From contig CADAWZ010000001.1 in assembly GCA_902791745.1 (NCBI GenBank), positions 1-48,567 on the forward strand: a stretch of DNA of 48,567 nucleotides, in the 5' to 3' direction. The position numbers were made by a program, and so were the translations under genes. The notes under the pieces were generated by a model. That model did no database searches and was not told where the DNA came from. It saw nothing but the letters and a program-made list of their open reading frames with translations. This document shows positions 2-44,057 of this stretch, one piece after another (the first letter of the stretch is position 1; each line of letters starts with the position of its first letter). This stretch comes from an uncultured bacterium (lineage in GTDB: Bacteria; Vulcanimicrobiota; CADAWZ01).

Positions 2-142
2 TTAAAAGCAGATAAAGGCGGAAGTATTGTCATTAAAAATAATCCAAAATTTGTAAAAGAAATTGAAGTTGAATCAGATGATATTTTTTTTGACATTGAC
101 AATAAAGAAGCTTGGAAAAATTTTATTATGGAGTGTTGGTAA
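2..142 (+). CDS. 3' end of an unidentified CDS (46 codons, ...FFDIDNKEAWKNFIMECW*)
   Basis: The frame is open from the window edge to TAA at 140-142. The DIDxxE..W ending weakly resembles the C-terminus of MobA-like nucleotidyltransferases. The last codons and the stop lie inside the repeat-element end (130-152). Confidence 0.4.
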   Translation, partial: LKADKGGSIVIKNNPKFVKEIEVESDDIFFDIDNKEAWKNFIMECW

Positions 143-540
143 ACTCTATTTTTGTATATTTAAATTATTAGTTTTCTGCCTATTTTTTATTTTGTGCCGA
201 ATGTTACTTTGTTTGAAAAAGCTCACTCTAAACACTCGCAAGCTCATGATGTCGTTCGCTTTTTCATAGCAAAGCAACATTTATTTTATTTAGTGTTAAT
301 TGCTGATATTTCTTTCTACTTATGACTAATTTGCAAATCTTAGGAGTGTAATAGACTCACTAAACAATTTTACCCCAAAGTTTATATCTAAATTCTAAAA
401 ACAGCCATTCTTTTTCTAAGTGCATCTTTTATAGAAACTACTACAGAAAATTGAAATCGTTCCCTTATTACACTCCAAAAACTTTGTTTACTTGTTAAAT
501 AATGCCTATTTTTGAAAATTATTTAACTGCCAAATTAACA
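130..540 (-). repeat. Copy 1 of the structured intergenic repeat family, inverted relative to copies 2 and 3. Composite of a full unit (343-476) plus a mini unit (200-281).
   Basis: The reverse complement of 401-449 shares TTTTCTGTAGTAGTTTCT, TGCACTTA and GAATGGCTGT with 8502-8550. Helix GGAGTGTAATA 343-353 pairs with TATTACACTCC 466-476. Second helix is 365-371/447-453. Positions 130-152 match the reverse complement of 8655-8677 at 22/23. The strand shown is relative orientation only. Confidence 0.7.
200..281 (-). repeat. Miniature unit of the repeat family: a long bipartite hairpin enclosing GAACGA...TTTAGAGTGA
   Basis: AATGTTACTTTG 200-211 pairs with CAAAGCAACATT 270-281, with one A.C that becomes a U.G wobble on the minus strand. 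TGAAAAAGC 214-222 pairs with GCTTTTTCA 258-266. On the minus strand the enclosed loop starts GAACGAC and ends TTTAGAGTGA, like the junction motifs of the full units. Confidence 0.5.
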
Positions 541-568
541 ATGAGGGACGGAAGACGGACGGAATAAG

Positions 569-1111
569 TTAGATAATCTTTTTTAACAAGGCAGAGGACA
601 TGACGGCTATTCCCTCACCTCTTCCCAAAAATCCCATTTTTTCATTTGTCTTTGCTTTAACTCCAATATGATTTTCATCAATTTCACATATCAAGGCTGT
701 ATTTTGTGCTATTTCTCTTTTATATTTATATAATTTTGGTTCTTCAGCAATTATAATAGTATCAATATTAACTATTTGAAACCCCTTTAAATTCAATCTT
801 TTTACTACATCTTCCAAAAGAAATGCACTTGATATTCCCTTATAATCTGGGTCTGTATCAGGGAAAAGAGTTCCGATGTCTCCCATAGCACTTGCACCTA
901 AAAGAGAATCAATAACAGCATGAAAAAAAACATCTCCATCAGAATGAGCATAAAAACCTTTTTCATAAGGAATATTAACTCCACCAAGAACAATTCCCAT
1001 TTTAGAAGGATCAAATTTATGACTGTCAAAACCTATTCCAGTAAAATATTCAAAAGAAGTAATATTTTCTAATTTTTCTAATCTTTTTAAAATATCATCC
1101 ATAAAAATCAT
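569..1111 (-). CDS. ispF: 2-C-methyl-D-erythritol 2,4-cyclodiphosphate synthase
   Basis: Motifs GIGFDSHKF, HSDGDVFFHAVIDSLLGA and DIG..FPDTDP..KG are present. The ORF-track start at 1117 is TTG, with ATGs at 1111 and 1102. There is an N-terminal extension of about 25 aa relative to typical IspF, and no clear SD. Confidence 0.85.
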   Translation of the reverse strand: MIFMDDILKRLEKLENITSFEYFTGIGFDSHKFDPSKMGIVLGGVNIPYEKGFYAHSDGDVFFHAVIDSLLGASAMGDIGTLFPDTDPDYKGISSAFLLEDVVKRLNLKGFQIVNIDTIIIAEEPKLYKYKREIAQNTALICEIDENHIGVKAKTNEKMGFLGRGEGIAVMSSALLKKII

Positions 1112-6410: not shown

Positions 6411-8438
6411 ATGCAGAGTACTCTACAACCTGGCATGACTCTTTGCGGAAAATATAAAATTCTCCAAAAAATAGGCAAAGGTGGAATGGCATTTGTATTT
6501 AAAGCTTATTCTTTAGTCCACAATAAAGAATGTGCTTTAAAAGAAATGCAAGACCAGTATTTAGATCCAGAATCAAAAGATAAGATTACAGCTCAATTTA
6601 TGAATGAAGCTATAACCTTGAGTAAACTCAATCACCCTGGTGTTCCTTATGTTCTTGAAACATTCGAAGCAGATGGCAAACATTACCTTGCAATGGAATA
6701 TGTTGCAGGAGACACACTTGAAGATTTTGTAGTCAATTCTCCTGCCCTTTTGACTCAAAATCAAGTACTGGGAATAGTATGGCAAATAACTGATATTCTA
6801 AAATATTTACACAATCTACCTGAACCTGTTATTTTGAGAGATTTAAAACCGTCTAATATAATGTTAAATAAAGACGGAAAAATAAAAATAATTGATTTCG
6901 GAATAGCAAAAGTTTTTGAACAAGGCAATGCAAGTCGGACCATGGCCAAAATAAAAGGTTCTGGTTCAAGTGGTTTTGCCCCTCCTGAACAATATGGAGC
7001 TGGTGGAACAGACAAACGCTCAGATATATATGCCTTTGGAGTAACGATATATTATCTTCTCACAGGTCAGATATTACCAGATTCAGTTGACAGAATTTTA
7101 AGTGGTGGAAGGCTCGATCCTGTAAAAGATGTAAATCCAACTGCAGGGAATGCAATACAAATAATGATTGAAAAAATGGTTCAATTAAAACCTGCAGACA
7201 GATTCCAAAATGTTGAAGAAATAATTGAATATCTAAAACAAAATGGAATGAGTGGAGATTTCCCTCTTTTAAAACCAACAATTTCACCATACCAAGAAGA
7301 AATAAAACCAGAATATGAATTTCCTGATTTTTCCCAAGAGGAAGAAGAACAGGAAGAAGAAGATTCAAATATATATCTTCCTCGACAAGTTTACAATAAG
7401 AGAAGAAATACACAAAATGATAATAGAGACGAAGAAAATTATCAAAGAAAATCTGAAATAAAAAATAGATTTGATTCCACTTCAGTTCCTCTACAGACAG
7501 AAAAATTACTTGGTTCAAATGGAATCGCAGATGGAGTAAAATCTGATGGTTCTCTAAGAAAAAATATAGAAGAAATAGCTGCACAGGATACAACAAGAAG
7601 GCTAAATCAGTCAGATATTTCACAATTTTTAACTCAAAAAAATCCTGAACTCGCAAACAAACTATCTGCCCCTAAAAAAGAAGAAGCACAATCAGAAAAA
7701 GAGAAAAAACCTGTTAAGTGGGGATGTTTTATATGGACAATCTTAATTTTAGCAATTTTTGGTGTGGGTGGATATTATGGATATAATTGGGCAAAAGCTC
7801 ACATATTTCCAACTCCAGAAAAACAACTAAAATTAAAACAAGAAAATGAAACATCAAAAATAGAACCAAAGAAAGAAGAAAAACCTGTTATAACATATGT
7901 TGAACAGAGTTCATCTGGTAAAATATCTCAAATTGTTAAAGATGGTAATACAAAGACTCTCATATTAAAATCACTTGTAGATGGCAAATATGTAAAACTA
8001 AAACAAGGAGAAGAACCACTTCCTGAAGGATTAAAAGTAGGTGCAGAGGTAAGTGTCATATACAAAATTCCAAAAACGAATCCTCAACAACCTTATGAAA
8101 TAATAAAAATTAAAATGGCAAATCCAAATCCAAAAACAGAAGTAACACCAAAAGCTAAACCTTCATCAACGAATAATTCATCAAATTATTCGTCTGGTTC
8201 ATCAAATTATACGCCACCGAGCAGTTCTAACTACTCTTCTGGTTCATCGAGTTATACACCACCAAGTAGACCGTCTAATTACTCAGCTGGTTCATCGAGT
8301 TATACTCCTCCAAGCAGACCATCAAGTAGTTCATCTGGTACTTCATCAAGTTATACTCCACCAAGCAGTTCATCAAGTAGCTCATCGAGTACATCAGAAT
8401 CAGGTGGATTTACTCAAAAAAGATCTACAGATTATTAG
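6411..8438 (+). CDS. Membrane Ser/Thr protein kinase with an extracytoplasmic domain and a Ser/Pro-rich YTPPS-repeat tail
   Basis: Motifs GKGGMAFVF, ALKE, ILRDLKPSNIM, DFGIAK and FAPPEQ are present. The TM segment is WGCFIWTILILAIFGVGGYYGY. The tail contains 4 x YTPPS in a poly-Ser context. Confidence 0.85.
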   Translation: MQSTLQPGMTLCGKYKILQKIGKGGMAFVFKAYSLVHNKECALKEMQDQYLDPESKDKITAQFMNEAITLSKLNHPGVPYVLETFEADGKHYLAMEYVAGDTLEDFVVNSPALLTQNQVLGIVWQITDILKYLHNLPEPVILRDLKPSNIMLNKDGKIKIIDFGIAKVFEQGNASRTMAKIKGSGSSGFAPPEQYGAGGTDKRSDIYAFGVTIYYLLTGQILPDSVDRILSGGRLDPVKDVNPTAGNAIQIMIEKMVQLKPADRFQNVEEIIEYLKQNGMSGDFPLLKPTISPYQEEIKPEYEFPDFSQEEEEQEEEDSNIYLPRQVYNKRRNTQNDNRDEENYQRKSEIKNRFDSTSVPLQTEKLLGSNGIADGVKSDGSLRKNIEEIAAQDTTRRLNQSDISQFLTQKNPELANKLSAPKKEEAQSEKEKKPVKWGCFIWTILILAIFGVGGYYGYNWAKAHIFPTPEKQLKLKQENETSKIEPKKEEKPVITYVEQSSSGKISQIVKDGNTKTLILKSLVDGKYVKLKQGEEPLPEGLKVGAEVSVIYKIPKTNPQQPYEIIKIKMANPNPKTEVTPKAKPSSTNNSSNYSSGSSNYTPPSSSNYSSGSSSYTPPSRPSNYSAGSSSYTPPSRPSSSSSGTSSSYTPPSSSSSSSSSTSESGGFTQKRSTDY

Positions 8439-8440
8439 AG

Positions 8441-8684
8441 CCTGTTGGTAAACTACCAATTAGCCAATTTTGTGCGATATAAGATAGTGAACGATATCCA
8501 TTTTTCTGTAGTAGTTTCTTGCAGATTGCACTTAAATAACGAATGGCTGTTATTATAATTTAGTATTTTTGAAGAGGAAAAAATGGTCTAGTGAACATCT
8601 TATATCCAAAAATTGGCATTGGCGTAGGTAGAAAATTAACAAATTAAACATACTAAAATAGAGTTTTCCAACACTCCCTAAATA
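8441..8684 (+). repeat. Copy 2 of the structured intergenic repeat family (best-defined copy)
   Basis: Outer helix is 8464-8472/8607-8616, inner helix GATATAAGAT 8476-8485/ATCTTATATC 8597-8606, and second helix CCATTTTT 8498-8505/AAAAATGG 8579-8586. Conserved blocks lie at 8502-8550. The ends are inverted-repeat-like: TGTTGGTAAAC 8443-8453 against the reverse complement of 8663-8673 (10/11). Confidence 0.7.
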
Positions 8685-8693
8685 GTTAAATAC

Positions 8694-8729
8694 AAAAAAG
8701 AGATGTAAAAAAAATTACATCTCTTTTTT
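8694..8729. terminator. Bidirectional intrinsic terminator
   Basis: AAAAAAGAGATGTAA 8694-8708 pairs with TTACATCTCTTTTTT 8715-8729. Confidence 0.8.
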
Positions 8730-8753
8730 GTATCATAATAAAAATATAATATA

Positions 8754-9434
8754 CTAACCCATTTCAAGAATCTTTACAACAGGTGACTTTGGAAGATTAT
8801 TACAATCAACTTGTGTTGCCAAAGCATAAAGATTCTCGACATTAGTCATTTTACTCGTAAAATTCTCTATAGGTTCTTCAAGCCAAGATATATATTCTGT
8901 CAATTTCGTTTTATAGTGCATTGGAAATATTATTTTAGCTTTTAATTGGTTAATGACAAGAACAGCATCAGAAGATGTCAGGACAGTACCACCTCCTACT
9001 GGGCAGAACAAAACATCTATCTCACCTAACCACTCAATTTCTTTTCCTGTTAAAACATGACCTAAATCACCAAGAAAACAAAATTTTAAACCATCCATAT
9101 ACCACATAAAAATAGTATTAGGTCCTTTTTTCTTTCCAATAAATTTATCATGATAAGTTGGAAATCCCTTAAAAACAAGGGTTTCATCTGTTCTCTTAAT
9201 TGTCTGCTCAAATTCAACAATATAATCACTTGTTCTTTTTAAAACTAATGGATTTCCTCCAACTCTCCAATAGGCATTATGATCAGCATGTTCATGACTT
9301 TGCAAAATAATATCTGCTGAAACCATAGGAAAAGTATAAGGCATAGTTTTTCCAAAAGGATCTGTTACAATAGAAGTACCTTTAGTAGAGGAAATATAAA
9401 AAGAACTATGTCCCAAATATCTTACACTAGGCAT
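8754..9434 (-). CDS. MBL-fold metallo-hydrolase (UlaG/COG2220-like)
   Basis: The HEHADH (HxHxDH) motif is present. The N-terminus YLGHSSFYI...SIVTDPF is typical of the family. Confidence 0.75.
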   Translation of the reverse strand: MPSVRYLGHSSFYISSTKGTSIVTDPFGKTMPYTFPMVSADIILQSHEHADHNAYWRVGGNPLVLKRTSDYIVEFEQTIKRTDETLVFKGFPTYHDKFIGKKKGPNTIFMWYMDGLKFCFLGDLGHVLTGKEIEWLGEIDVLFCPVGGGTVLTSSDAVLVINQLKAKIIFPMHYKTKLTEYISWLEEPIENFTSKMTNVENLYALATQVDCNNLPKSPVVKILEMG

Positions 9435-11630: not shown

Positions 11631-12626
11631 TTAATATGATTTATGTTCAACCAATACATTCATAGTAGTTTTTTTGCCATGTTTCCAAACTGTTAATTCT
11701 ATTGACTGTCCAGGAACACAACCATTTAACATAGCTCCAAAGTCATCTGTAGATAAAATACGCTGACCATTAAAATTTGTTATCAAACATCCTTGTTCAA
11801 TACCTGCTTTTCTTGCTGGTCCATAGTCAATTACTGTTTCTACATAAACACCATTTCTAACAGGCAAATCATAATTTTCAGCTATTTCTTTTGTTATAGT
11901 CTTTACACCTATACCAATCCAAGGCTTAGGTGAATTTTGAATTTCACCTTTCCTCAAATATTTCGAAGCTTCAATAGCAGTATTTATTGGAATAGCAAAA
12001 CTTAACCCCTGAGCATTTTTAGCTCTATACACAACAGTATTAACACCTATTACTTCTCCACTTAAATTTATCAAAGCACCACCAGAAGAACCACTATTTA
12101 TAGCTGTATCAGTTTGAATCATATTCCTATAAGTCAAATCTTTTCTTTGGATATCCCTATTTAAAGCACTTATACAACCAACAGTAACAGTCCATTGAAA
12201 TTGTAGAGGATTTCCAATAGCTATTGCAGTTTGACCAAGCTCCAATTTAGAAGAATCACCAAATTTAGGCACTGGTAAATTACTTGCCTTTACTTTAATT
12301 ACAGCTAAATCTTTTGAAGCTGAAGTTCCACATATAACAGCACTAAATGTTTTACCATTTACTAAAATAACTTGAATAGTAGAAGCATTTCTTACAACAT
12401 GTTCATTTGTCAATATATACCCATCTTTAGTCAAAACAATACCACTACCGCCTCCAGTTCTACCATCTTTTGAAGTAGTTTTAATTTTAACAACAGATGG
12501 CTTTGCCTTTTTCACTGCACTGACAACAGCAGATTCCTGACTTGGTGGGTATGCAGAGTAAACAGGAGTTGATAAAGAAAATAAAACCACAAACAAAAAT
12601 AAGATACTAAATTGTAAATATTTCAT
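11631..12626 (-). CDS. HtrA/DegP-family serine protease with one PDZ domain, secreted
   Basis: The catalytic triad context is TNEHVV, DLAVIKV and GSSGGALIN. A signal peptide and a C-terminal PDZ-like region are present. The ATG at 12626 has GGGAGAAG upstream. Confidence 0.85.
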   Translation of the reverse strand: MKYLQFSILFLFVVLFSLSTPVYSAYPPSQESAVVSAVKKAKPSVVKIKTTSKDGRTGGGSGIVLTKDGYILTNEHVVRNASTIQVILVNGKTFSAVICGTSASKDLAVIKVKASNLPVPKFGDSSKLELGQTAIAIGNPLQFQWTVTVGCISALNRDIQRKDLTYRNMIQTDTAINSGSSGGALINLSGEVIGVNTVVYRAKNAQGLSFAIPINTAIEASKYLRKGEIQNSPKPWIGIGVKTITKEIAENYDLPVRNGVYVETVIDYGPARKAGIEQGCLITNFNGQRILSTDDFGAMLNGCVPGQSIELTVWKHGKKTTMNVLVEHKSY

Positions 12627-13858: not shown

Positions 13859-14177
13859 CTCCTTTCTAATTTTGGTACTTAAAATATTTTCACATGTTAT
13901 GTCTTGATTTAACTTTAATTTTTGGATAGTATTATTATTTTAACATGTATTTTATGAATGTGCAATATTTTTTAAAAAAAATCAAGTTAAGAAACACTCC
14001 ATTTTTCAAATAAAGGGAAAAATAAAAAATTTATAGAAAAATGTTTTTGTAAAAATTTAATGATATTTTATATTAACTTGGCAATAAAATAATAGAATTT
14101 TATTTTATACTATTCAAATTATTTAACTTCCAAATTAATAATATTTTAAATAAATATGACAGGAGAATGTTTTTGTC

Positions 14178-26496: not shown

Positions 26497-26750
26497 TATT
26501 AAGTTGGCTGTTAAATAATTTGAAAGAGCAACTTTTGTGTGGTACAATACGGGCAAATTAGCTCCTTACAATAAAGGAGAAAAAATACTGGAACTGCATC
26601 ACTTTTTTTGGTAGTAGTATCTAAAAAGAAAGCTCCTACTTGAAATATTCTCTATTTTAAATAAAATTAGATAAATAAAAAGAGAAAAATTTTAAAGTGA
26701 ACATATTGTATCTCAAAAGTTGCGTAGCAAAAAATAAAACAATTATTTAA
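26497..26750 (+). repeat. Copy 3 (divergent) of the structured intergenic repeat family
   Basis: Outer helix is CAACTTTTG 26529-26537/CAAAAGTTG 26714-26722 and inner helix TACAATA 26543-26549/TATTGTA 26704-26710. The core TTTTTTTGGTAGTAGTATCT matches at 17/19. AAGTGAAC precedes the 3' helix strand and GCGTAG follows the helix, as in copy 2. Confidence 0.6.
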
Positions 26751-26793
26751 TATTTTATTTTAGCACAATAAAAAATAAAAAGCAAATTATTAT

Positions 26794-26838: not shown

Positions 26839-28404
26839 TTAATAGAGATACATTGTTTTTATTTTCCAATTATTGTTATCATCAGATTCAAGAACTAATT
26901 CACCTATTCTCAATCTTATGAAAAAATATTTACCATCTTCTACAATTTCAAGCCTGTCAGTTGCAATAATAGGAACAACACTTGTTATTCTGCAAAGTTT
27001 TCCTTTTTTTCTAAATGTTATATCAGAAAGATTTATAGGAAGCATTTTAAATTGCTTATGTTCCATTATTTCTTTTGTTGCTGCTCTATATGCATCTCTT
27101 ACATCTTGGGCTTTACCCTTTCCTTGTTTTTCATATTCTAATGCAGATTCTTCTATAGAATTTTTCTGCATTTCCATTACTTTATCTAAATCTTTCGAAG
27201 CATAAGCATCATAAAATTCTTTTATAACAGAAATTATTGCTTCTTTTTCTTCAGCAGTTAATTCATTTGGATTTTTCTTTTTTTCCTTCTCTGCTTTTTC
27301 TTTTGCAATTCTTTCTTTTTCTGCTTTTTCTTTTAATGCTTTATCTTTTGCTTCTTGTTCTTTAACCTTTTTTTCTTTTAATGCTTTATCTCTAAGAGCT
27401 TGCTCTTTTTGAGCTTTATCTTTTGCTATCTGTTCAGGTGTTTTTTGAACTTTAGTATCTTTTTTGTCAGTTGCTTTTACTCCTAAACCTTTTACAACTT
27501 TATCTCTTATTGCTTGTTCATATTTAGCTTTTTCTTTAAGAGTCATAGGTTTTTGAGTTTTTTCTTTAGCTATTTTGTCTTTTTCAGCTTTCTCTTTAGC
27601 TATTTTGTCTTTTTCAGCTTTTTCTTTAGCTATTTTGTCTTTTTCAGCTTTCTCTTTAGCTATTTTGTCTTTTTCAGCTTTCTCTTTAGCTATTTTGTCT
27701 TTTTCAGCTTTCTCTTTGGCTATTTTGTCTTTTTCAGCTTTCTCTTTGGCTATTTTGTCTTTTTCAGCTTTTTCTTTAGCTATTTTGTCTTTTTCAGCCT
27801 TCTCTTTAGCAATTCTTTCTTTTTCAACTTTTTCTTTAGCTAATTTTTCAGCTTTTTTTCGTTCTTCTGCATTCTTTTTTATTCCAGTTGTATTGAATAT
27901 AGTTTTTTTATTTTCTTCTCTTATTTCTTTAATCTTTTTTTCTTCGACAGGAGTTCCCTTTGCTGTTACATTACCTTCATTTTTATTAAAATAATATGCA
28001 GAAGCATTATGAAGCCATGGATTTGGACATTTTATCATGTAATTGTTACCTAATGGAAAATATTGGTATGTATTTTCTTCATCACAACAATACATAGTTT
28101 TTTGACCAGTTCCACTGCCTGTTTTTACAATATAATTAAAAAAATCTTCAGAAATAAACTCTTCTTTTGTTGGCAATTTTCCATTATGATCATTTGCCCA
28201 TAATTCGATCGCCATAGAAATAACTTGTATTCTGTCTTTACAAGTTTTTAAATGTTCAGGATTAGGTTTTACAGCTGGGGCTACTACTGTCTTTTTTTCA
28301 TTGTTTGTATTTTGTTTTTTATTATTTTGAGCATTTACAGTTGAAAAACAAATACAAATTGATACAATGAATATTATTAATGTAAAAATAGTTGTTTTTC
28401 TCAT
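26839..28404 (-). CDS. Secreted Lys/Glu-rich coiled-coil repeat protein with an NTF2/SnoaL-like C-terminal domain
   Basis: A signal peptide ending FSTVNAQ is present, followed by 8-10 x [10 protein letters not shown] decapeptide repeats. The C-terminus [21 protein letters not shown]... resembles an NTF2-like fold. The gene overlaps fmt by ATGA. Confidence 0.6.
27571..27810 (-). repeat. Eight near-identical in-frame 30-nt tandem repeats
   Basis: The unit TATTTTGTCTTTTTCAGCTTTCTCTTTAGC repeats with 0-2 differences per copy. Degenerate units lie on both sides. Confidence 0.95.
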
Positions 28405-41351: not shown

Positions 41352-44021
41352 ATGAATATTGAACTTGAAAAAAATTATAATTACAAAGAAGCAGAAAAAA
41401 AGTGGTATGAATATTGGATTTCAAATAAGTTATTTTCAGCTACTTCAAATTCAAACAAACCACCATTTGCAATAGTTATACCTCCTCCAAATGTAACTGG
41501 AGAACTTCACATGGGACATGCAATGGATCACACACTTCAAGATATCATCATAAGAGGAAGAAGAATGATGGGATTTGAGGCTGTATGGATTCCTGGTACT
41601 GACCATGCTGGTATTGCAACTCAGAAAAAAGTTGAAGATAAAATCAGAAAAGAAGGGCAGACAAGATATACATTAGGTAGAGATGAATTCATAAAAAAAG
41701 TATGGGAATGGAAAAATCAATATGGTAGCCAAATCATAGAACAGTGCAAAAGATTAGGTGATTCATGTGATTGGGACAGACTCAGATTTACCATGGACGA
41801 AGGTTGTTCAAGAGCAGTAAAAGAGGCTTTTTACAGACTTTATAAAAAAGGCATAATCTACAAAGGACGCAGACTTATAAACTGGTGTCCAAGATGTCGC
41901 ACAGCTCTTTCAGACCTTGAAGTAAATCATAAGAATTCAAAATCAAAATTGTACTATTTGAAGTACAACTTTAAAGACCAAGAAGGTTGTATAACAATAG
42001 CAACAACAAGACCTGAAACGATACTTGCTGATTCAGCTATATGTGTACATCCAGAAGATGAAAGATATAAAAATGTTGTAGGAAAAGAAGTTATAATTCC
42101 TATTGCAAATAGAGCAATTCCTGTAATTGCTGACGATGTTGTTGAAAGAGATTTTGGAACAGGTGCTTTAAAAATTACTCCTGCACATGATCCAACAGAT
42201 TATGAAGTTGGTAAACGCCACAATTTGCCAACATATATTGTTATTGATGAAAAAGGATGTATGAATGACGAAGCTGGAGTTTATGCAGGACTTGACAGAT
42301 TTGAATGTAGAGAAAAAATAGCAGAAGACCTCGAAAAAGCAGGTCTAATGGAAAAAGTAGAAGATTATACAAATGCTGTAGGTGTTTGTTACCGTTGTGA
42401 TACAGTAACAGAGCCTTATCTCTCTTGGCAGTGGTTTGCAAAAATGGATGATTTAGCAAAAAAAGCACTTGAAGCCGAAAAAGAAGGTAAAGTTAAATTT
42501 ACTCATCCACGATATGCAAATACATATAGAACATGGCTTGAAAATATAAAAGATTGGTGTATTTCAAGGCAGCTTTGGTGGGGACATAGAATTCCTGTTT
42601 GGACTTGTGAAGATTGCGGTCATGTTGATTCATACCTTGAAGAACCAACAAAATGTCCAAAATGTTCAGGTGAACATCTAAAACAAGAAGATGATGTTCT
42701 TGACACTTGGTTTTCATCAGGTCTTTGGCCTCTTGAAACACTCGGTTGGCCAGATAAAACAAAAGATCTCGAATTTTTCTATCCAACAAAAGTTTTGATT
42801 ACAGCAAGGGATATTATATTCCTTTGGGTTGCAAGAATGATAATGTTCGGACTTGAATTTGAAGGCAAAGTTCCTTTTGAAGATGTACATGTACATGCAA
42901 CATTGATGGATAAGAGCGGAAAGAGAATGAGCAAATCCCTTGGAACTGGAATTGATCCACTCGTTCTCATTGACAAATATGGTGCAGATGCTCTTAGATT
43001 TGCACTTGCTCAAATGACAGGTCAAGGACAGGATATTAAATTTCCTGTTGACTATAAAAAAGGAACAAAAGAAATTGAAAGAGCAGAAAGAGTAGAAACA
43101 GCAAGAAATTTTGCAAATAAAGTTTGGAATGCAACAAGATTCTGCTTAAGCAATATCCCTTCAGATATAAAGATAAAAGAACTTGATTTTTCAGCAATGA
43201 CAGACCTTGATAAATGGATTTTATCAAGACTAAACAAAGCTTGTATGACAACTAAAAAGGCTTATGATACATATTCATTTGATGTAATGGCAGATGAATT
43301 ACTTGAATTCTTCTGGTATGATTTCTGTGATAAATATATCGAAACAGTAAAACCAATAATTACATCAGAAAATGGAAGTCAAACTGTTCAAGCACAGATT
43401 TTATTGTATGTTTTGAATAGTTTTGTACGTCTTCTTCATCCAATAATGCCTTTCATAACAGAGGAACTTTGGCATTTACTTCCCCAAACCGAAGGTTCAA
43501 TAATGAAAGCAGATTATCCACAGTATGATGAAAAATTTAATTTTGCAAATGAAGAAAAAATTGCAGAAATTGTTTTTGAAACAGTTCGTGGAATAAGAAG
43601 TTTGAGAAGTGATGCTGGTATTGCTCCAAAGAAAATTGTAAAAATAAATGTTTCAACAAAAGATGAAAACTATTTAGAAGTTGTAAAAAAATATGCTGAT
43701 ACAATAAAAATTCTTGCAGGTGCAGAGATAATAATATCTTCTGAAGATAATGTTACTAAGGCTCTTGTATATATGTATGGAGTAAATCAAATTTTGTTAT
43801 CCGCTGAAGAGATAGATAATCTTGAAAAACAGATTGCCGATATGGAAAGAGAAGCAAGTAAAATAGCAAAATTGGTTGAATCTTTAAATAAAAAGTTGTC
43901 AAATAAGGCTTTTATTGAAAATGCAGATCAAAATATTATAGAAAATGAAAAGGCAAGACTTGCCGAAGCACAAGTCAAGGAATCTAAATTGACTGAGCAA
44001 ATAAAAATATTAAAATCATAA
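41352..44021 (+). CDS. valS: Valyl-tRNA synthetase
   Basis: Motifs PPPNVTGELHMGH and KMSKSLGT are present, along with a CP1 editing domain and a C-terminal coiled coil. Confidence 0.95.
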   Translation: MNIELEKNYNYKEAEKKWYEYWISNKLFSATSNSNKPPFAIVIPPPNVTGELHMGHAMDHTLQDIIIRGRRMMGFEAVWIPGTDHAGIATQKKVEDKIRKEGQTRYTLGRDEFIKKVWEWKNQYGSQIIEQCKRLGDSCDWDRLRFTMDEGCSRAVKEAFYRLYKKGIIYKGRRLINWCPRCRTALSDLEVNHKNSKSKLYYLKYNFKDQEGCITIATTRPETILADSAICVHPEDERYKNVVGKEVIIPIANRAIPVIADDVVERDFGTGALKITPAHDPTDYEVGKRHNLPTYIVIDEKGCMNDEAGVYAGLDRFECREKIAEDLEKAGLMEKVEDYTNAVGVCYRCDTVTEPYLSWQWFAKMDDLAKKALEAEKEGKVKFTHPRYANTYRTWLENIKDWCISRQLWWGHRIPVWTCEDCGHVDSYLEEPTKCPKCSGEHLKQEDDVLDTWFSSGLWPLETLGWPDKTKDLEFFYPTKVLITARDIIFLWVARMIMFGLEFEGKVPFEDVHVHATLMDKSGKRMSKSLGTGIDPLVLIDKYGADALRFALAQMTGQGQDIKFPVDYKKGTKEIERAERVETARNFANKVWNATRFCLSNIPSDIKIKELDFSAMTDLDKWILSRLNKACMTTKKAYDTYSFDVMADELLEFFWYDFCDKYIETVKPIITSENGSQTVQAQILLYVLNSFVRLLHPIMPFITEELWHLLPQTEGSIMKADYPQYDEKFNFANEEKIAEIVFETVRGIRSLRSDAGIAPKKIVKINVSTKDENYLEVVKKYADTIKILAGAEIIISSEDNVTKALVYMYGVNQILLSAEEIDNLEKQIADMEREASKIAKLVESLNKKLSNKAFIENADQNIIENEKARLAEAQVKESKLTEQIKILKS

Positions 44022-44057
44022 TTTTTCTGCTTTCGTAACTTTTTTGATATAGTAAAA

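Follow-up and report, generated by a model that had tools for sequence, protein, structure and literature searches.

Bacterial MITEs, short for miniature inverted-repeat transposable elements, possess terminal inverted repeats, target duplications and TA termini, and give rise to long stem-loop transcripts; RUP has been tied to IS630-Spn1 and to TA targets, and the Correia elements are substrates of RNase III (PMC2229807). In REPINs, the two sides of the hairpin frequently carry compensatory changes, which have been read as the result of selection on the folded single-stranded DNA (ssDNA) or mRNA of a mobile element (PMC3116915). The sequence considered here, contig CADAWZ010000001.1 of an uncultured bacterium, was analyzed at its full length of 48,567 nucleotides and is called the window. 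The spacer between its genes for a Ser/Thr kinase and for a metallo-beta-lactamase (MBL)-fold protein had been described, from the letters alone, as the best of three copies of an intergenic element with covarying helices, which was attributed to a folded RNA or ssDNA, with a MITE-like mobile origin as a secondary idea. It is this secondary idea of the sequence-only reading that now became the best-supported answer: with a probability of about 0.8, positions 8438 to 8678 are a bacterial DNA transposon of the non-autonomous MITE type, based on filled and empty alleles, a TA duplication and terminal inverted repeats. The hairpin core of this element is part of a family of repeats, modular and diverged, in which changes on both sides leave the pairing of the stems intact.

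Contigs of other strains were found via the identical MBL-fold protein (8754 to 9434). Among the contigs encoding it, the kinase-MBL spacer comes in two sizes, 316 bp and 71 bp. When the window was compared by BLAST with the strains possessing the short spacer (L018, L021, and L023), the alignment stopped at 8438 and restarted at 8679; the filled strains were L015, L016, L017, L022, and L026. The empty allele reads GATTATTA|AATAGTT, or ...CAGATTATTA|AATAGTTAAC... over a longer distance, and the filled allele reads GATTAT-TA-(GAGCCTGTTGG...CCAACACTCCC)-TA-AATAGTT, or ...CAGATTAT-TA-(GAGCCTGTTGGTAAAC...GTTTTCCAACACTCCC)-TA-AATAGTTAAA..., with the inserted stretch in parentheses. Because both alleles differ by exactly 241 bases plus the duplicated TA, which is present on either side of the element but only once in the empty alleles, this part of the spacer is an insertion. 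Its borders, placed before at 8441 and 8684, were corrected to those given above (Table 1). The identity of the flanks to the window was 99.3 to 99.9% for L018 and L021; the two flanks of L023 were 99.9% and 97.0% identical. Two sister species with an ArgRS that is 77% identical (L044 and L047) are also empty, with a short spacer in which the kinase stop codon is followed by the terminator, and the empty state as the ancestral one is supported by these species.

The ends of the element, already noticed as being similar to inverted repeats, are terminal inverted repeats. Their cores, TGTTGGTAAACT and TGTTGGAAAACT, pair at 11 of 12 positions (8443 to 8454 versus 8662 to 8673, one mismatch), an imperfect extension reaches to the very tips, and forms of the repeat are GAGCCTGTTGGTAAAC and GGGAGTGTTGG(T/A)AAAC. 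An exact TGTTGGTAAACT is also present at positions 134 to 145. Open reading frames (ORFs) within the 241 bp have a size of only 20 to 37 aa, mostly with starts other than ATG. As ssDNA, the whole element folds into one hairpin from tip to tip with −30.8 kcal/mol (z = −4.06), and none of 200 shuffled sequences was as good. The stop codon of the kinase gene is TAA in the empty and TAG in the filled strains, leaving the protein unchanged. The host terminator, a perfect 19-bp inverted repeat (8690 to 8708 and 8715 to 8733), was moved by the insertion to a distance of 243 nt from this stop codon. Terminators are indeed present downstream of copies 2 and 3, as had been stated, but both are host features, and that of copy 2 is not part of the element because it also exists in the empty site. 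The kinase itself (675 aa) carries a Ser/Thr/Pro-rich repeat (..YTPPSS..SSSS..) in its C-terminal tail (8300 to 8420), and its length is 675 to 679 aa among the strains and 701 to 703 aa in the sister species.

Inside the element is a hairpin core that also occurs elsewhere. This “unit” is composed, from outside to inside, of the P1a stem, a small loop, the P1b stem, a junction, the P2 stem, and an apical part. Units were searched for with a profile in the window and in about 600 kb of fetched loci, together about 130 to 150 kb of unique sequence; hairpin cores of 140 to 235 nt turned up at four loci, and at least six diverged versions of them were distinguished. The outer stem P1a has the general form GCNANTTTT/AAAANTNGC, P1b is variable with 9 to 11 bp, and the junction contains ..GAACGA.. 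in its 5′ strand and ..TAGTGA(A/G).. in its 3′ strand. Copies 1, 2, and 3 of the sequence-only reading are the units U1, U2, and U3. What had been reported for them was largely recovered: the shared 18-mer TTTTCTGTAGTAGTTTCT is exact at 8502 to 8519 (+) and 433 to 450 (−) and has 3 mismatches at 26605 to 26622 (+), while the other conserved blocks and the junction motifs are located where they had been placed. Four matches to the 18-mer with up to 3 mismatches were found, compared to 0.13 expected, and none of 100 shuffles reached four. The enclosing helix, which is P1b, is real and is itself enclosed by the further helix P1a, and the second helix, CCATTTT/AAAATGG, was confirmed inside P2. In U3, pairing arms exist, but the TACAATA assigned to the 5′ arm sits in the loop of an extra hairpin, and GGTACAATA is the better 5′ arm. 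U1 was confirmed as a unit, albeit within a truncated composite of larger size, at the end of which (127 to 145) the main element's terminal repeat is found. All seven full units tested folded better than dinucleotide-preserving shuffles, with z values between −1.9 and −9.4. A perfect 8-nt direct repeat, TAGTGAAC, is found at both junctions of U2 and U6; it could be a conserved internal-loop motif or the target duplication of an older nested insertion, and an empty form lacking the inner part (..GGTGTAAGA-TAGTGAAC-ATCTTATACC..) was not seen in the fetched sequences.

Co-variation was analyzed in an alignment of 10 distinct units, which contained only the arms, registered by hand and with artificial anchors between them, so that it was fitted to the structure and leans towards it. 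Paired cells amounted to 84.3% compared to 70.5% ± 1.6 in shuffles, and 23 of the 33 pairs displayed two-sided change compared to 12.4; in both cases, 0 of 500 shuffles reached the observed value. Sliding the partners by 1 to 3 columns decreased the pairing to 43 to 55%. Cognate arms paired with −10.2 kcal/mol in P1b, −5.7 in P1a, and −6.9 in P2, and noncognate arms with −4.0, −1.2, and −2.8 kcal/mol, respectively. The compensatory change claimed from a few copies holds with more copies, and this claim was therefore correct. Co-variation by itself, however, cannot establish a functional RNA, and that of the stems is real but typical of fold-back mobile DNA. As the argument for a functional RNA as the main explanation, it gave way to a 241-bp insertion with a TA duplication, terminal inverted repeats, and one concentric palindrome. 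Target-site duplications together with noncompensatory arm differences had been named as speaking against a selected fold; a duplication is present, yet the arm differences are compensatory, which puts the outcome between the two poles of the sequence-only reading.

How such a MITE may be propagated can be outlined. A DDE transposase encoded elsewhere in the genome would bind to the terminal repeats and paste the element into a TA. As candidates, we assume the IS630/Tc1-mariner family or a subgroup of the IS5 family with 2- to 4-bp duplications; the use of TA as the target here fits IS630/Tc1-mariner but is not specific to it. The GAGCCTGTTGGTAAAC repeat may be more similar to IS5/IS903-type ends. 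Complementarity of the stems may be kept since the spread or persistence of the element would depend on a fold-back form, which could be ssDNA during replication or transposition, or hairpins of transcripts. Unequal recombination and nested insertion between copies would shuffle the modules. The element with U2 is oriented in sense direction between the kinase stop codon and the terminator and should, therefore, be transcribed as a 3′ untranslated region (UTR) that is longer by 243 nt and contains a stable stem-loop. This could alter the stability of the kinase mRNA as with Correia and ERIC elements, which would be a side effect and not the function of a dedicated RNA gene.

Several observations weigh against the assignment to the MITEs. 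No transposase was present in the gene tables of the about 600 kb of fetched loci, so that the partner enzyme had to be inferred. The TGTTGGTAAACT repeat was found at only two loci and a clean pair of filled and empty sites at only one. The flanks in the window are nearer to those of the empty strains (97.0 to 99.9%) than to those of the other filled strains (96.8 to 98.4%), and the polymorphism may consequently reflect recombination or loss as well as gain. One hairpin core resides within at least two terminal-repeat shells, which is not predicted by a simple one-family MITE model. Finally, the non-Watson-Crick cells of the helices comprise, on the sense strand, 11 G·U but 3 A·C (p about 0.06, with cells that are not independent of each other), and in none of 7 units does the antisense strand fold better than the sense strand. 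The G·U excess and the sense-strand folding weakly hint at a strand-specific folded form, RNA or ssDNA, which a purely double-stranded DNA model does not need and which keeps alive the idea of a core with a function of its own.

In one version of this idea, which we consider unlikely, the core would be a functional structured RNA, a small RNA (sRNA) or a cis-acting 3′ or 5′ UTR element, that is selected as RNA and merely carried by mobile shells. The wobble and folding bias agrees with this, as do the strong co-variation in three helices, the conserved junction motifs GAACGA/UAGUGA that could form tandem G·A pairs, and the retention of the core inside different shells. The location of U2, U1, and U4 downstream of genes and in sense to the upstream gene also agrees. 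Against it stand the following points. U3, U6, and U5 are antisense to both neighbors, so that the orientation is mixed. No RNA family of Rfam matched the window at the gathering threshold, in agreement with the earlier statement on known RNAs, and the E-value mode applied to the three copies and two related loci returned only terminators and one unit-length microRNA-precursor hairpin model far below the threshold. The 241-bp element contains no terminator of its own, and promoter and terminator scans gave counts not above those of shuffles, with terminators absent from within the elements. Upstream of U3, a single good sigma-70-like promoter was found; its −10 box coincides with the 5′ arm of P1b, which means that the transcript would lack this arm. 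In the L034 orthologue of U3, C·A mismatches that lack compensation occur twice, in P1a and P1b. Conservation of the blocks is not far above the expectation from 70 to 75% identity, and the exact 18-mer is less telling than it appears, because about 72% identity over 150 nt gives such a run with a P of about 0.1 by our own estimate. Moreover, about 35 kb of the sister species with the 77% identical ArgRS contained no member of the family. A number of candidate readings were dropped. Mini-ORFs (MAVIII/MAVFRI, MV*, and Shine-Dalgarno [SD]-like AAGGAG followed by ATG, TTG, or CTG) are not kept in frame between the copies. Assignment of the junction to a K-turn or sarcin-ricin motif is suggestive by sequence only, with loops varying in length. 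Hammerhead, twister, retron msr/msd, 6S RNA, and the IS110 bridge RNA were discarded for lack of their defining motifs or partner genes.

A core that is a transposon-borne structured RNA or ssDNA module, kept by several small transposons for its service to the element and with the hypervariable P1b as a specificity determinant beyond a purely structural role, is more doubtful. A possible role of such a module is to regulate transposition or direct it to targets, or else to protect the transcript. It would explain why the core exists in at least two unrelated shells, why the stems co-vary while the junctions are fixed, and why the wobble pairs favor one strand.

Still less probable is a unit that serves as an ssDNA substrate for recombination or transposition, similar to attC sites, REPINs, or the ends of IS200/IS605, with one strand recognized by a tyrosine recombinase or an HUH enzyme. 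In favor of this, the element folds significantly as ssDNA, the wobble bias differs between the strands, unit arrays with small ORFs in between exist at the ispF hot spot described below, and the outer stem GCAAC...GTTGC loosely resembles R″/R′ of attC. Terminal inverted repeats and a TA duplication, however, are not products of HUH or attC mechanisms, and an interior that is conserved between variable stems is the reverse of the situation in unrelated attC sites. An integron attC was rejected since the outer stem (GA)GCAAC/GTTGCG(T/A), by eye GAGCAAC and GTTGCGT, does not fit the consensus RYYYAAC/GTTRRRY, an integrase was missing, and the TA duplication is at a non-attC site. REPIN/RAYT was rejected due to the TA duplication and the missing Y1/HUH gene, and an IS200/IS605-type element or omega-RNA due to the terminal inverted repeats, the duplication, and the missing TnpA and TnpB. 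The gene tables of the fetched loci listed no integrase, RAYT, TnpA, Y1/HUH gene, reverse transcriptase, TnpB, or Cas protein, which agrees with the earlier remark that no transposase, reverse transcriptase, TnpB, or Cas gene is nearby. Least probable of all is a decaying, nonfunctional repeat with helices that arose by chance, for although A/T runs pair easily in DNA of 30% GC and early folds of truncated copies reached only z = −1.2 to −1.5, this is contradicted by the folds of the full units, by cognate arms that pair far better than noncognate ones, and by an extent of pairing in the alignment that shuffle and slide controls never reached.

Table 1. Features of the 241-bp element, of the hairpin units, and of related sites. 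Positions are those of the window; L numbers designate fetched loci of other strains or species.
Feature	Position	Strand	Remarks
Left TA target copy	8436-8437	+	First two bases of the kinase stop codon; filled/empty alleles
241-bp MITE-like element	8438-8678	+	Noncoding, end-to-end hairpin; empty alleles, ssDNA fold, ORF check
Left terminal inverted repeat, core TGTTGGTAAACT	8443-8454	+	Extended form GAGCCTGTTGGTAAACT from 8438
Unit U2 (hairpin core)	8463-8617	+	RNA fold −38.4 kcal/mol, z = −3.2; co-variation
U2 P1a	8463-8471 with 8609-8617		GCCAATTTT/AAAATTGGC
U2 P1b	8476-8485 with 8597-8606		
U2 junction motifs	8486-8497 and 8587-8596		TAGTGAAC in each
U2 P2	8498-8506 with 8577-8586		Includes CCATTTT/AAAATGG
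U2 apical part	8507-8576		18-mer, TGCACTTA (8527-8534), GAATGGCTGT (8541-8550), AATTTAG (8557-8563)
Right terminal inverted repeat, core TGTTGGAAAACT	8662-8673	−	Extended form GGGAGTGTTGGAAAACT, ends at 8678
Right TA target copy	8679-8680	+	Filled/empty alleles
Host bidirectional terminator	8689-8734	.	Common to kinase and MBL genes; in empty alleles; outside element
Truncated composite element	127-541	−	Downstream of ispF; upstream motif TTGGCAGTTAAATAATTT at 516-533, U1 and tail, right terminal repeat and TA at 127-145
Unit U1 (copy 1)	336-486	−	Downstream of ispF; P1b GGAGTGTAATA/TATTACACTCC at 476-466 with 353-343
Solo 30- to 44-nt segment that precedes U1 and U3 (TTAATTTGGAAGTTAAATAATTTGAA)	14113-14156	−	Probably remnant of an element end
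Unit U3 (copy 3)	26528-26723	+	Three strain variants
U3 P1a	26528-26537 with 26714-26723		GCAACTTTTG/CAAAAGTTGC
U3 P1b	26541-26549 with 26704-26712		5′ arm GGTACAATA
U3 extra hairpin	26561-26580		SD/anti-SD-like
U3 possible outer pairing	26510-26522 with 26740-26751		
Remnant like 3′ half of a unit (..TATATCAAAAAAGTTACGAAAGCAGAAAAAT..)	44004-44051	−	
Units U4b and U4c	L027		ispF spacer of other strains
Unit U5	L034, L036, L040		Downstream of glyoxalase gene
Unit U6	L051		93%-related species, site of U3; P2 entirely different, TTATTACACTC/GAGTGTAATAA
ispF spacer, window	127-569		5′ truncated, one unit
ispF spacer, L015	18867-19660		Recombinant between U4b and U4c
ispF spacer, L025	7093-9125		Two copies of a GC-rich inverted-repeat element, with an orphan hsdS (type I restriction specificity, Methylase_S) lying between them
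ispF spacer, L027	3635-5050		Two units and a 90-aa ORF

The units are located among nested and recombined small insertions, with recombinant units, deletions between units, and neighbors inserted beside them. The first type of shell is TGTTGGTAAACT with TA, and the second is CAAAAATGTTTTGCC with a longer, imprecise direct repeat, which encloses U5 and U6. U3 may be enclosed by a third terminal repeat, TTAAATAATT, and it is not flanked by TGTTGGTAAACT repeats. The motif TTGGnnGTTAAATAATTT occurs three times with 0 or 1 mismatch, at 516 to 533 (−), 14116 to 14133 (−), and 26504 to 26521 (+), two of these shortly upstream of a unit and the third by itself in a divergent promoter region. Since the copy at U3 can pair with CAATTATTTAA, it may be the end of another repeat shell instead of a promoter. 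Likewise, TTGGCnGTTAAATAATTT was rejected as a sigma-54 or Bacteroidetes-type promoter due to a misfit of spacing and −12 element, and is more likely an outer inverted repeat together with the CAATTATTTAA downstream of U3. In L051, at about 1560 to 1640 on the minus strand, a tRNA gene was recognized by eye just beyond the terminator adjoining U6, where the window contains a gene for a repeat protein. This protein of 521 aa (26839 to 28404, minus strand) has an N terminus similar to a signal peptide and long tandem repeats; its called length is 491 to 530 aa among the strains, and some contigs have it called as two genes.

Between ispF and a converging nucleotidyltransferase gene lies a hot spot that varies by strain, with the terminal repeat of the main element (TGTGTTGGTAAACT...TTTACCAACACTCC) on both sides. 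The composite element of the window has lost its left terminal repeat and a second unit, which are both present in other strains. A Pfam search with the 90-aa ORF neighboring the units in L027 gave no match. The last codons of the nucleotidyltransferase gene (..M E C W) and its TAA stop codon (140 to 142) appear to lie inside the terminal repeat GGAGTGTTGGTAAAC, as judged by eye from the gene call in L015, the coordinates of which could be mapped only imperfectly to the window. If so, an element end became the 3′ end of a host gene (window 127 to 145). An element of about 300 bp with long GC-rich inverted repeats (..CACTTTGTCATTGCGAGGCGTAGCCGTGGCAATC.. / ..GATTGCCACGGTCGC..CTCGCAATGACA..), present in this genome of 30% GC at L016 18960 to 19294 and L025 7165 to 7440 and 8860 to 9125, ends with ..TAGAGG(C/T)TGTTTGGTT(A/G)GAT, a sequence similar to the main element's terminal repeat; the GC-rich element had no match in Rfam.

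Further small insertions were seen beside U5. One of 152 bp in L035 (about 12290 to 12440, minus strand) is absent in L036, has the ends GGAGTGTGTGCAG.../...ACACACTC and an 8-bp duplication, GAAAATTG, and represents a second small mobile family, the ends of which likewise begin with GGAGTGT. Another of about 190 bp in L034, L035, and L036 (about 12200 to 12390) is absent in L040, has the ends CGGCAATTTTCAG.../...AAAATTGATG with TA on both sides, and is positioned immediately upstream of U5. The gene order downstream of the glyoxalase gene varies by strain, with either a DUF4127 or an EF-G-like gene.

Metagenomes of rumen and gut are the source of the host, which belongs to a poorly sampled deep lineage with 30% GC. 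Relatives of its ArgRS were found at 99, 86, and 77% identity, and then none above 42%. Two proteins of the window had their closest named matches, at 30 to 66%, in metagenome-assembled genomes of Eremiobacterota and Armatimonadota. The degenerate pattern TTTTNNGTAGTAGTNTCT-N5-12-GCNCNTA had 1, 3, and 10 matches in viral, genome, and metagenome collections, respectively, from which the source genome is absent, and all of them were chance matches according to a follow-up BLAST. A BLASTN search of the element against plasmids and phages gave no match, and a tRNA/tmRNA scan found none. About 35 kb of other strains, around the far end of the window, likewise held no member of the family. While bacterial MITEs are already known as a kind, this is a new family of them in an almost unsampled lineage.

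For intergenic blocks of this type, the proper annotation is mobile repeat rather than sRNA gene or riboswitch. Fold-back mobile DNA yields a convincing “compensatory” co-variation, and the comparison of filled and empty sites is a quick discriminator. In the Ser/Thr kinase gene, the insertion altered the 3′ end, with a changed stop codon and a predicted additional 243 nt of structured 3′ UTR. Related insertions can conveniently serve as markers of strains and may contribute regulatory variation, and the ispF spacer acts as a landing pad whose content differs by strain and which harbors an orphan hsdS in one of them (L025).

Compared to the described systems, the element shares with the Correia elements of Neisseria (CREE/NEMIS) the small size, the lack of coding capacity, terminal inverted repeats, a TA duplication, the definition by filled and empty sites, and size variants caused by internal segments. 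Both often adjoin genes with which they are, or in the present case would be, cotranscribed, and form long stem-loops, which in the case of Correia can be cut by RNase III (PMC2229807). There is, however, no sequence similarity, the size is 241 bp instead of about 107 to 155 bp, the perfect repeat core is 12 bp instead of about 24 to 26 bp, and the host is an uncultured low-GC lineage of rumen and gut. RUP of Streptococcus pneumoniae is also noncoding, with terminal inverted repeats, a TA target, and a presumed mobilization in trans by a DDE transposase (PMC2229807). The repeats of RUP match a resident IS630-family element, but none matching was found here in the fetched loci. ERIC/IRU and REPIN sequences are likewise imperfect palindromes that fold into long hairpins, with compensatory changes in REPINs (PMC3116915). 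REPINs are, in contrast, doublets of REP sequences that depend on RAYT (HUH) transposases and do not cause target duplications, whereas a TA duplication and terminal inverted repeats exist here and no RAYT was seen. The terminal motif ..G(C/G)TGTT(T)GG.. in combination with a short A/T target may resemble Tourist and IS5-type ends (PIF-Harbinger-IS5 superfamily), which serves as a lead only. Nesting of MITEs is common in the Tourist-like group. Tourist-like MITEs are eukaryotic and generate 3-bp TWA duplications, in contrast to the 2-bp TA duplicated on either side of the element described here.

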